DNA of 64,000 nucleotides from a virus. Positions 1,956-5,297 of this stretch are shown piece by piece; positions within the stretch are counted from its first letter, which is position 1, and each line of letters opens with the position of its first letter. The DNA is taken from IMG/VR virus record IMGVR_UViG_3300031933_000117, positions 2,688 through 66,687 of that record, one strand, 5' to 3'. The position numbers were made by a program, and so were the translations under genes. The notes beneath the pieces were generated by a model. The model had not been told where the DNA came from, did not search any database, and saw nothing but the letters and a program-made list of their open reading frames with translations.

Positions 1956-2165
1956 TTAGTTCTTATAAAGGTCTTCTAGTCTTTCTTTGGTGAGGTCAAC
2001 ATATAAGAGTTCATCACCTTCTTTTGGTGCTTCTGGATGTTGAGGTTTTCTTGGAGTTCTCATTTCCTCATTGATGGATTGGATGTTTCCCCACATCATC
2101 GCAAAGGCACCTCCTGCGATGACTGCGAAGAATGTGAAGTATAGGAGAGGGAGTAGGGGGTTCAT
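1956..2165 (-). CDS. Small membrane protein, DUF2973-like
   Basis: N-terminal TM helix followed by HPEAP motif, as in cyanobacterial/cyanophage DUF2973-type proteins. Confidence 0.55.
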   Translation of the reverse strand: MNPLLPLLYFTFFAVIAGGAFAMMWGNIQSINEEMRTPRKPQHPEAPKEGDELLYVDLTKERLEDLYKN

Positions 2166-2542
2166 GGGGTTTTATGTGTTTGTAGGTATTTAATCATAGT
2201 CTCAAGGATTTGTATATTATCACCAACAAGACCAAGTGCAGTATTGCAGTTGTTACAAAGAACACCACGAACTTTATTTGAAGAATGGCAGTGGTCTATA
2301 CACTTCTTATCCAAAACCTTATCACATATCTGGCAGTTCTCATTTTTCATCAAGTCATTATATTGGTCTTCTGTAAATTTAAACTTTCTACGCATAAACT
2401 CGTGTGGTTTATAATATTGTTTTCTATTTTTTGTTGCACATTTTTTACATCTTGGTTGCAATCCAACATTACCAGAATTAAAAGTTCTTTTATGAAATGC
2501 ACTATCTGGCAATTCAAGTTTACAATCGTTGCACGTTTTCAT
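2162..2542 (-). CDS. Free-standing Endonuclease VII-family homing endonuclease (F-CphI-like) downstream of psbA
   Basis: CQIC...CIDHCH...VRGVLCNNCNTALG EndoVII motif; N-terminal CxxC pairs; own late promoter TATAAATA (2568-2575); position directly 3' of psbA. Confidence 0.8.
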   Translation of the reverse strand: MKTCNDCKLELPDSAFHKRTFNSGNVGLQPRCKKCATKNRKQYYKPHEFMRRKFKFTEDQYNDLMKNENCQICDKVLDKKCIDHCHSSNKVRGVLCNNCNTALGLVGDNIQILETMIKYLQTHKTP

Positions 2543-2576
2543 ATTTGTAATGCGTATTTTCTATACTTATTTATAC

Positions 2577-2602
2577 AAAAAAAAGGAACTCCGAAGAGTT
2601 CC
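2577..2602 (-). terminator. Intrinsic terminator of psbA
   Basis: GGAACUC-UUCG-GAGUUCC hairpin followed by U8 on minus strand. Confidence 0.85.
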
Positions 2603-2612
2603 CCTTATTATA

Positions 2613-5131
2613 TCAACCGATAGAAGGAGCAGTTAGAGCAACCGAAGTTGTTTCTGCTGCTGCCAGATCTAAAGGAAAGTTCGCTTAACCCGTAAATTTA
2701 CCATCCTTACGGAGCAGACTATATCATCAACCTATTTCATTAGGTTGTCGGACGCTAATGGTGTATTACATAGGGCGCTCCCTAAACCACCTAGTCGTTG
2801 AACCTTCCTCAAAAGTTCGTTTGAGGCTTGGCTGCTGATTGCCCTTATATTTTGGAGGGGTTCCAGCAATTCATCCGATTTACATCTATCAATTACTTGA
2901 TAGAGCCACCACTTTCTAATGGGCGTTACGTTCATGCCGTTTTTGTTATCGTAAGAACTCTTTATTTCTTACTTCTTACTGTCGCCAGTAAGACCAGACT
3001 ATCTCTTCATCCGTTCTGGATGCTGGGCATTCGTGGGTAGATTATTGTTGGAACTCACTACCTAGTCGTTAGACCTGCCGAAGAACCTATGTCCTCTTCG
3101 GATTGGTACGGGATTGTCTACTTGAGAGTTTCCCCGTTTAACCCAGTTTCGTCAAGGAATATTCCTATTCCAGGGTGACTACATTTCAGAAATCACTTCC
3201 ATACCAAGTCCAGCACGATTTAAAATGTCAGCCCAAGTAGGAATTACTCGGTTTTGACTATCAATAAGAGACTGGTTAAAATTAAAACCGTTGCACTAGA
3301 TCCATAAGTTTACCATACTTGTGGAGTGGACTATATCTTCATCCCAGTAGGATGTCGGACGCTTATTCCTGTTATTAAGGGAACTATATCCCTCAGGTAG
3401 TCTCTGAACCTTTCTTGAGTGTACTCAAGACTTGGATGCTGATTGCCCTTTTATTTTGGAGGGTTTCCAGCAATTCATCCGATGTTTGCCGTTAAATTGC
3501 TTTAACGGAACCCCAATTGAGGTTAAATGCCATCGTGGATACACCAAGAGCGGTGAACCAGATGCCCACAACGGGCCAGGCAGCCAGGAAGAAGTGTAAC
3601 GAACGGGAGTTATTAAAGGAAGCATATTGGAAAATAAGGCGACCAAAATACCCGTGAGCAGCAACGATGTTGTATGTCTCTTCTTCTTGTCCGAACTTAT
3701 ATCCATAATTCTGTGACTCGGTTTCAGTGGTCTCACGAACTAGTGAAGAAGTCACTAGCGAACCGTGCATAGCACTGAAGAGTGAACCACCGAAGACACC
3801 AGCAACTCCAAGCATATGGAATGGGTGCATAAGGATATTATGTTCTGCCTGGAAGACTAGCATGTAATTAAACGTACCAGAAATACCAAGGGGCATAGCG
3901 TCAGAGAAAGAACCTTGACCGAAAGGATACACAAGGAATACAGCACTCGCAGCAGCAACAGGTGCAGAGTAAGCAACCATAATCCAGGGACGCATACCTA
4001 AACGATAGGAGAGTTCCCATTCACGACCCATGTAGCAATAGATGCCGATAAGGAAGTGAAATACAACAAGTTGAAATGGACCTCCATTATACAACCATTC
4101 GTCAAGACTCGCTGCTTCCCAGATAGGATAGAAGTGAAGTCCGATAGCATTTGAACTTGGAACAACAGCACCAGAGATGATGTTGTTTCCGTACATAAGA
4201 GAACCAGCAACTGGTTCACGAATCCCGTCGCTACATCTAACAAACAACCATATCTTTTGACTTAGGTTGCTTCTGTTGACGAATTTGATTTGCTCGTTTT
4301 GCGTTTTCTACTCTTCCACCGTTTTCTACCCACTCTTTCCAAGTTTGTAGGTAAGAAATAGATTCGGTTATTCTCTCTGCTCTTCTTACTCCCATATAAG
4401 GAAGTATTTTTTGTAGAATGAATAATACCTTTTCTTTTTCTCCGATGTGAAGTGTATAAACTTGTTTTCCTGTTACGGTCTTTCTTGATGGTGAAAAATA
4501 AGATTTATCTAAAAGTTTACTCAACCTTTGGATAATATCTTCATCCACCATAGAAATTTTGATAAAAGGTGCTGGTGGAGTATTAGAAACTTCATAACGG
4601 TCTTTGGAACGATTATCTATTCCAAAGTATCCTTCACCTTCTAATAATCCAGCAATCCAAGCAATATCAGTCTCGGTTATGTTTAACATTTTGTTTTTGC
4701 TTCTACTGTACTATTTATACAGCATTAGCAAGAAAAAGTCAACAGTAGATGTGTGGACTATATCTTCACCCTTCATTTTTATTGAAGGGGCTGGGCACTT
4801 AAACCTGTTATTAAGGGAACTATATCCCTCAGGTAGTCTCTGAACCTTTCTTGAGTGTACTCAAGACTTGGCTGCTGATTGCCTTTCGGTTTCCAGCAAT
4901 TCACCCAGTTTCGTCAATACTCTTACGAGTAAGGGACACCGATTAGTTAATGTCTACGGGAGGCGCTCCAACAAACGCAATAATGAAGCAAGTAGTTGCA
5001 GCGAGCAACGTTGGAATCATAAGAACGCCGAACCAACCAACATAAAGGCGGTTGTTCGTGGAAGTAACCCAGGAACAGAAATCGTTCCAGAGATTATTAG
5101 TATTAGAACGTGTAGCAATTGTAGCAGTCAT
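2613..5131 (-). CDS. psbA: Photosystem II D1 protein, 5 exons: 5131-4950, 4230-3520, 3293-3192, 2937-2919, 2681-2613
   Basis: Exon lengths 182+711+102+19+69=1083 nt = 360 aa + stop. Junctions restore PPVD(AT|C)DGIREP, AFN(CT|C)NGFNFNQ, GMEV(AT|G)HERNAH and H|NFPLDLA. Confidence 0.97.
2682..2918 (-). mobile_element. Group I intron 4 of psbA (237 nt, no ORF)
   Basis: 5' exon ends in U (CCAU pairs IGS GUGG with U-G); P10 GAAAGU pairs exon ACUUUC; core AAUUGCUGGAA, AAUCAGCAG, GGUUCAACGACUA, AUAUAGUCU; terminal G. Confidence 0.93.
2938..3191 (-). mobile_element. Group I intron 3 of psbA (254 nt, no ORF)
   Basis: Exon end GUGAU pairs IGS GUCAC (U-G at splice site); core AACGGGGAA/AAUCCCGU, GGUCUAACGACUA, AAGAGAUAGUCU; terminal G. 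Confidence 0.93.
3294..3519 (-). mobile_element. Group I intron 2 of psbA (226 nt, no ORF)
   Basis: Exon end AACCU pairs IGS GGGUU; P10 UUG/CAA; core AAUUGCUGGAAA, AAUCAGCAU, GGUUCAGAGACUA, AAGAUAUAGUCC; terminal G. Confidence 0.95.
4231..4949 (-). mobile_element. Group I intron 1 of psbA (719 nt) carrying a LAGLIDADG ORF near its 3' end
   Basis: Exon end GACAU pairs IGS GUGUC; core AAUUGCUGGAAA, AAUCAGCAG, GGUUCAGAGACUA, AAGAUAUAGUCC; terminal G at 4231. Confidence 0.95.
4237..4689 (-). CDS. Intron-encoded single-motif LAGLIDADG homing endonuclease
   Basis: [23 protein letters not shown]-type helix; inside intron 1 downstream of the S element; late promoter TATAAATA at 4712-4719. Confidence 0.85.
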
Positions 5132-5154: not shown

Positions 5155-5217
5155 AGTTCGGGGGACGAACTTATTAGTAACTATATTCCACGACACCCTC
5201 AGTCGTGGATATGAGGG
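5155..5217 (-). ncRNA. Structured psbA 5' leader (candidate PhotoRC-II-like cis element)
   Basis: Interleaved complementary pairs CCCUCA/UGAGGG and UCCACGAC/GUCGUGGA plus hairpin AGUUCG/CGAACU; family assignment not verified. Confidence 0.5.
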
Positions 5218-5297
5218 ATGCTTTACTTCTCTTGATCCCGGTTTGAGAAGACACGGTTCTCAGAATTGTCACATTCCTTAACCCCGTGTATGTATAT

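Follow-up and report, generated by a model that had tools for sequence, protein, structure and literature searches.

The stretch of viral DNA analysed here, 64,000 nucleotides (nt) corresponding to positions 2,688 to 66,687 of the IMG/VR record IMGVR_UViG_3300031933_000117 and referred to below as the window, contains a psbA (D1) gene that is divided by four introns (Table 1), and two of these introns hold an identical block of 68 nt. This raises the question as to whether introns residing in the same phage gene have exchanged sequence and, if they have, which of them is the recombinant. The original prediction, made from the letters of the window, proposed that intron 2 is a chimera of introns 1 and 4 and attributed this to recent recombination or gene conversion in cis, or to transposition to new sites with re-targeting of the guide sequence. 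Comparison with introns of the same family in other phages indicates that the mosaicism is real and that its polarity is most likely the reverse, with intron 1 and not intron 2 having received the block.

The two copies of the block, 3368-3435 in intron 2 and 4804-4871 in intron 1, agree letter for letter (68/68 nt) as had been claimed, are bounded by mismatches at 3367/4803 and 3436/4872, and lie within a 94-nt stretch of 94% identity. The second similarity on which the original prediction drew, a 53-nt block in introns 4 (2827-2879) and 2 (3431-3483), is likewise present with 3 differences in 53 positions. In terms of the RNA the 68-nt block comprises P6, J6/7-P7 and the P7.1/7.2 hairpin between P7 and P3', and the 53-nt block comprises P3-P4-P5. 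By segment, introns 1 and 2 are 44% identical in P1-P2, 67% in P3-P5, 100% in the block and 53% in the 3' part, with 76 differences in 161 positions outside the block and 0 in 68 inside it; for introns 2 and 4 the values for the same segments are 49%, 94%, 57% and 76%.

Approximately 270 loci, identified here by L numbers, were obtained from pattern scans of IMG/VR viral contigs and metagenome contigs. Orthologs were recognised by insertion site together with the site-specific 5' part, sites being named after D1 codons (61 for intron 1, 298 for intron 2), and the P6 allele samples for these two sites were drawn with a P2-P3 pattern that is blind to the block, giving 102 loci and 49 unique sequences for site 61. 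Orthologs of intron 2 at site 298 were found in 15 viral contigs. Against L159 and L130, and also L143 and L161, intron 2 shows 8-10 differences over 153 flanking positions and 0 over the 68 of the block, with the psbA exons of the L159/L130-type phages being only 86-91% identical to those of the window; L143 carries the exact block in its intron 2 ortholog yet has an uninterrupted exon across site 61. The nearest relatives of intron 1 by flanks are L182 and L187 (1/149 differences) and L189, L223, L229 and L240 (2/149), and from its flank-nearest site-61 relatives the block of intron 1 differs at 6-12 of 68 positions (one-sided Fisher p from 4e-6 to 0.013). The P6 allele contained in the block, TCTTGAG/CTCAAGA, is the commonest at site 298, where 4 of 11 other unique sequences have it, and occurs in 0 of the 48 other unique site-61 introns (Fisher p=7e-4 versus site 298). 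In intron 1 the P6 hairpin occupies ~4845-4871, and the six positions distinguishing it from L150/L264-type orthologs fall at 4849-4866.

Trees built separately from flanks and block disagree. In the flank tree the two site lineages are resolved from each other with 100% support in the Shimodaira-Hasegawa-like approximate likelihood ratio test (SH-aLRT), and the block tree mixes them, with 7 site-label changes and a site-61 clade rejected by the approximately unbiased (AU) test (p=0.0096). On the strength of the differences between orthologs in flanks and block, the P6 allele counts and this conflict between trees, intron 1 joins site-61 flanks to a foreign, site-298 block of the intron 2 type, and intron 2 is an unaltered, normal site-298 intron with its native block. 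The claim that intron 2 is the chimera is thereby contradicted by its own orthologs; the exchange between introns that had been proposed stands, with the roles reversed and the part assigned to intron 4 removed. Transposition with re-targeting of the guide could reasonably account for the origin of the whole family, but the block is left unexplained by it.

Within the window alone the opposite construction, in which intron 2 was built in this gene with P6-P7.2 taken from intron 1 and P3-P5 and everything else from intron 4, agrees with the segment identities given above, intron 2 matching intron 4 in P3-P5 and to a lesser degree in the 3' part and intron 1 throughout the block. Furthermore, both intron 1/2-type and intron 4-type blocks occur among site-298 and site-337 introns elsewhere, so that whole blocks were at some time in the past exchanged between these two lineages. 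We nevertheless regard a recombinant intron 2 as quite improbable, as the same flanks together with the exact block are present in at least four other site-298 contigs whose exons are 10-14% diverged, one of which is without intron 1, the block is foreign to the site-61 lineage, and the P3-P5 segment of intron 2 does not stand nearer to intron 4 than do the same segments of its orthologs in other phages. The P3-P5 segments of those orthologs show likewise 2-3 differences from intron 4 and the orthologs of intron 4, and site-298 and site-337 introns are 79-94% identical in P3-P5 across many contigs. Because all site-298 introns of the subfamily are about equally close to intron 4, the likeness of introns 2 and 4, which had been taken as a sign of recombination, appears to be subfamily kinship by common descent in a conserved part of the core and not a recombination scar. 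A recent exchange of P3-P5 between introns 4 and 2 was rejected on the raw comparison of ortholog sequences, given the 2-3 differences found throughout.

The best reading, and one that we hold to be probable on balance, is that a short gene conversion replaced the P6(-P7.1) cassette of intron 1 with the site-298 version, most simply from the co-resident intron 2. T4-like cyanophages replicate through recombination. In the course of recombination-dependent replication or repair introns 1 and 2, which would already have shared ~45 nt and the CAATCAGCA-CCAAG string, could form a heteroduplex, and repair or branch migration into P6 would then copy the donor hairpin. The resulting patch would span 18-68 nt, exon 2 would not be deleted, and the simplest donor would be the co-resident intron 2, 1,436 base pairs away. 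We infer how the block was converted, that the donor lay in cis and that the event was recent; the window would hold one recent, private instance of cassette exchange within the family.

Several observations weigh against this reading. The second half of the block (~45 of its 68 nt, AAGG...AACAGG, P7-P7.1) is near-invariant, being identical in 37 introns at 8 sites, and its P7.1 allele is the commonest in the family (the same 37 introns and 8 sites) and is found in 5 of the 49 unique site-61 sequences. Exact runs of at least 60 nt connect introns at different sites in ~3% of pairs, whether or not they share a genome, and to this extent identity of the kind observed is indeed routine among these introns, as the original prediction had allowed it might be. 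Identical 68-nt blocks make up 0.9% and identical P6 alleles 4.3% of different-site pairs, and the identity is less remarkable than it first seems. Compared with L150, L264 and L223 only six positions of the block, forming three compensatory P6 pairs, are diagnostic, and for L150 and L264 the divergence of the block does not exceed that of the remaining intron sequence (Fisher p ~0.6). Many different blocks already occur at site 61 in introns whose flanks are near-identical, the cassette being hypervariable, and the recombinant intron 1 is a singleton in a metagenome assembly. In addition, there is no excess of identical blocks in cis, with 1 of 134 pairs on the same contig and 83 of 9312 on different contigs (permutation p=0.62). 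Concerted evolution in cis, assessed as same-contig sharing permuted within sites, was not detected for P6 (p=0.68), P7.1 (p=0.11) or the whole block (p=0.62). The dataset therefore gives no sign of conversion being favoured in cis as a rule, and an intron of another phage may have served as donor. A comparison of intron 1 with L150 alone (block 6/68, rest 14/155) had suggested no contrast between block and flanks; it was set aside as L150 is not the flank-nearest relative, and L182 and L187 give a clear contrast.

These background frequencies bear directly on whether any genome-specific exchange is needed. A limited, selected pool of P6/P7.1 alleles, or parallel compensatory evolution, might have produced the same combination in introns 1 and 2 by chance: identical blocks and identical P6 alleles recur at the rates given above with no enrichment among co-resident introns, the P7.1 allele is the commonest one and is also present at site 61, and about one co-resident identical pair is expected by chance in the dataset (permutation mean 0.91). 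We consider such a coincidence rather unlikely. None of the other 48 unique site-61 introns has the P6 allele, and to reach it from any site-61 allele observed, three compensatory pair changes would have to occur at once. Nor is P6 selected for one sequence, at least 17 alleles being present at site 61, and the sharing of alleles across sites itself demands either recombination or repeated identical multi-step convergence.

If the block did arrive by conversion, the donor may have been a site-298 or site-224 intron of a co-infecting phage acting in trans. L139 and L152 have the exact block in their site-224 introns and several other phages have it at site 298, the low divergence of introns between phages relative to exons (~6% against 15-22%, see below) shows horizontal traffic, and general enrichment in cis is missing. 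Nothing in the sequence sets cis apart from trans; the simplest source is the perfect match that the gene itself offers at a distance of 1.4 kb, and we think a donor in trans unlikely. An artefact of assembly or strain mixing is a further concern with a metagenome contig, here one of 70.7 kb in IMG/VR with a CheckV completeness of 34%, and the junction that defines the chimeric intron 1, its own P5 followed by the P6 of intron 2, was found in no other viral or metagenome contig searched. Such an artefact is nonetheless very improbable: the exon order is intact, nothing is collapsed, and judging from the letters at the join the graft would have had to be made over only 5-11 shared 5' bases (GGCAATCAGCA, a G/T mismatch, CCAAG), which is far below the usual k-mer sizes.

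The structural features of all four introns are consistent with functional group I ribozymes. All four (4/4) are matched by the Rfam covariance model RF00028 over model positions 1-253 above its 50-bit gathering score, and from the reading of the junctions all four 5' exons end in U and all four introns in G; predicted splicing of the four introns restores the D1 frame over residues 1-359. That each intron has its own guide for a different exon, as originally described, is borne out by the same reading, with P1 pairings to the upstream exon end of GACAU/GUGUC, AACCU/GGGUU, GUGAU/GUCAC and CCAU/GUGG for introns 1 to 4. Introns 1 and 3 do share the other form of P3, TTGACGAAACTGGGT...GCCCAGC. 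The extra helical element of subgroup IA, P7.1/P7.2, is present as an insert of 30-34 nt after the GACUA of P7 and before P3', and its P7.1 hairpin shows compensatory changes across alleles (e.g. GGGA/TCCC, GGGG/CCCC, GAGG/CCTC and GGAA/TTCC). A consensus fold of 20 family members recovered P2, P3, P4, P5, P6, the P7.1 hairpin, P8 and P9, and because 27 of its 48 pairs display compensatory changes the introns of the family appear to be maintained as ribozymes. As the P6 differences are all compensatory and the helix covaries, the cassette now in intron 1 is likewise predicted to be a working P6 and not a product of decay. The loop of the P7.1 hairpin (3378-3398 / 4814-4834) reads GATATAGT and repeats the core J8/7-P7' string GATATAGTC found downstream of it, at 3325-3337, in the same intron. 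This repeat could allow an alternative pairing or could be the reason for the strong conservation of the P7.1 allele.

The event in the window belongs to a broader pattern. Using a profile derived from seven introns together with tblastn against D1 we placed well over 150 family introns in psbA at ~12 site classes, namely codons 60/61, 77, 92, 106-108, 166, 183-185, 218, 250, 298, 331-333, 334/335 and 336/337. As many as six fell within one psbA, with five or six in single genes among loci such as L172, L116, L166, L211, L239 and L255. A more general core pattern, CTGCTGGAA...CAATCAGCAKCCAAG, had IA introns of many unrelated phages among the matches listed, was too unspecific for the recognition of orthologs and served as background only. 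The four introns of the window are all members of a single family of phage IA-type group I introns, as is the psbA intron of S-PM2. Across the family the 5' part (the P1-P2 guide and P3-P5) and the 3' part (P3', P8 and P9) track the insertion site, and the P6 and P7.1 hairpins behave as exchangeable cassettes between the near-invariant core strings CAATCAGCA-CCAAG, AAGGTTCAGAGACTAC and TTAATAACAGG. A single P6 allele may be found at up to five sites, every site has numerous alleles, and all combinations of P6 and P7.1 alleles are met, including among site-61 introns whose flanks are nearly identical. This reticulate pattern calls for frequent exchange of small cassettes within the family.

The introns clearly move between phages as well. 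Over 4131-5050 of the window, intron 1 with its open reading frame (ORF) is ~6% diverged from L150 and L132 and the adjoining exons are 15-22% diverged, which would fit a recent horizontal spread of intron 1 between phages by homing. Among the relatives of the remaining introns, the intron 4 orthologs L012 and L156 are identical in segments A-C, and the intron 3 orthologs L153, L156 and L159 are 100% identical in the core segments. A second candidate for conversion between introns within one gene is offered by L027, whose co-resident introns at sites 184 and 224 (1012-1219 and 1341-2205) have a 103-nt exact run in common. Unannotated stretches 75-83% identical to P6-P7-P7.1 of intron 2 are also present in Pseudoalteromonas phage PH357 and in several human-faecal crAss-like phages, and this module would therefore extend well beyond the cyanophages.

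We tentatively propose, as a possibility for which the odds at present are less than even, that the psbA introns form one metapopulation over at least 12 sites, with P6 and P7.1 hairpins circulating as cassettes between lineages and phages and anchored by the ~45-nt P7-P7.1 string, which would be conserved beyond the needs of ribozyme folding, for example as a recombination anchor or a binding site for a phage factor. The window would then display one fresh exchange within a family-wide process that keeps paralogous ribozymes compatible or diversified. No description of a multi-intron cyanophage psbA, or of exchange among such introns, was found in the literature.

The closest known system is the psbA intron of the marine cyanomyoviruses S-PM2 and S-RSM88. 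This intron is of the same ribozyme family (82.6% identity to intron 2 over 161 nt), and in S-PM2 (locus L147) it has the identical P7-P7.1/7.2 string and a related P6 allele, interrupts the same host gene and has a free-standing endonuclease VII (EndoVII)-family nuclease gene nearby. S-PM2 however has one intron, at approximately codon 334/335, a site that is empty in the window, whereas the window has four at other sites, one of them with a LAGLIDADG ORF. The freshwater Synechococcus phage S-SRM01, the nearest isolate in GenBank, resembles the window in that its psbA holds three introns of this family, of which one has a homing endonuclease, and its A250/A251 intron has the same type of block (59/68 identical); its three sites, H92/F93, A250/A251 and R334/N335, all differ from the four of the window. 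The S-SRM01 genome paper recognised one psbA intron only (PMC8557907). Positions 2284-4335 of this genome (L001, NC_070963) are annotated as two partial D1 genes and a homing endonuclease; we read them as one psbA with three group I introns, the endonuclease ORF lying within the H92/F93 intron.

Beyond psbA, Bryk and Belfort in 1990 and Hall, Liu and Shub in 1989 are said to have described hybrid introns of T4 td, nrdB and sunY that formed by recombination through short conserved core sequences, the domain-shuffling events reportedly being single crossovers that deleted or rearranged the DNA between introns. The window is alike in that different group I introns would have recombined homologously through core strings, and differs in that a patch was replaced without deletion, leaving psbA intact. 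Skipping of a 23-nt exon has reportedly been observed in orf142 of the Staphylococcus phage Twort. [quoted passage not shown] This gene is similar to the psbA of the window in that several paralogous introns, two of them highly similar, occupy one gene with a micro-exon between neighbours (19 nt in the window), and dissimilar in that its similar pair is adjacent and flanks the micro-exon, whereas in the window the block is common to introns 1 and 2, at a distance of 1.4 kb from each other, and the similarity is limited to a cassette instead of running over the entire intron.

Once corrected, the claim of a chimeric intron 2 amounts to a modest finding. Our verdict is that the event in the window is a new instance of a known process and that the larger intron family is the more interesting by-product. 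The event provides a natural example, with its polarity resolved, of what is probably a patch exchange between paralogous self-splicing introns in one phage gene. The S-PM2 intron known from isolates is seen to be one member of a far larger family that occupies about a dozen psbA sites and whose introns are far more alike between phages than are the surrounding exons, which bears on how group I introns spread and retain function after moving to new sites. The annotation of phage psbA is affected as well, multi-intron genes having been deposited as "partial" D1 genes, and in psbA-based diversity surveys these introns would interfere with primers and with the mapping of reads.

Table 1 Features of the psbA region, in coordinates of the window
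Feature	Positions	Strand	Placement and evidence
psbA, 5 exons and 4 introns	2613..5131	(-)	tblastn against S-RIM8 D1 covers residues 1-359
Exon 1	5131-4950	(-)	
Intron 1, 719 nt	4231..4949	(-)	between D1 codons I60 and D61; RF00028 75.1 bits
Ribozyme core of intron 1	~4722-4949	(-)	
68-nt block in intron 1, proposed converted tract (recipient)	4804..4871	(-)	identity to 3368-3435
LAGLIDADG-like ORF in intron 1, after the ribozyme core	4240-4689	(-)	Pfam LAGLIDADG_3 23.0 bits, E=9.6e-5
Exon 2	4230-3520	(-)	
Intron 2, 226 nt, without ORF	3294..3519	(-)	within L297-N298 codons (site 298); RF00028 83.0 bits
68-nt block of intron 2, native to site-298 lineage and proposed as donor type	3368..3435	(-)	0/68 differences from L159 and L130
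Exon 3	3293-3192	(-)	
Intron 3, 254 nt	2938..3191	(-)	inside codon M331; RF00028 56.5 bits
Micro-exon 4, 19 nt (last base of M331 and HERNAH)	2919..2937	(-)	tblastn with S-RIM8 D1 and junction reading
Intron 4, 237 nt	2682..2918	(-)	between H337 and N338; RF00028 93.4 bits
Exon 5	2681-2613	(-)	
PhotoRC-II RNA motif, upstream of psbA	5173..5262	(-)	RF01717 44.1 bits, cut-off 39
Free-standing endonuclease VII-family gene, just downstream of psbA	2165..2542	(-)	Pfam PF02945 62 bits, E=5e-17

The exon/intron junctions of the psbA map were obtained from reading of the sequence together with a tblastn search against D1 of phage S-RIM8, which is intron-less. The PhotoRC-II RNA motif that precedes the gene is a cyanophage hallmark. 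The assignment of the intron 1 ORF is marginal, the score for LAGLIDADG_3 lying just above its cut-off of 22.5 bits and that for LAGLIDADG_1 (20.4 bits) below its cut-off of 23.1; the ORF is also kept in the orthologs L150 and L132 at a nucleotide divergence of 6-7%. The 19 nt of the micro-exon between introns 3 and 4 have to serve both for P1 of intron 4 and for P10 of intron 3. The EndoVII-family gene downstream of psbA is a possible source of breaks or of heteroduplex processing and occupies the same position as F-CphI in S-PM2. In S-SRM01 an EndoVII gene is found likewise at the position downstream of psbA.

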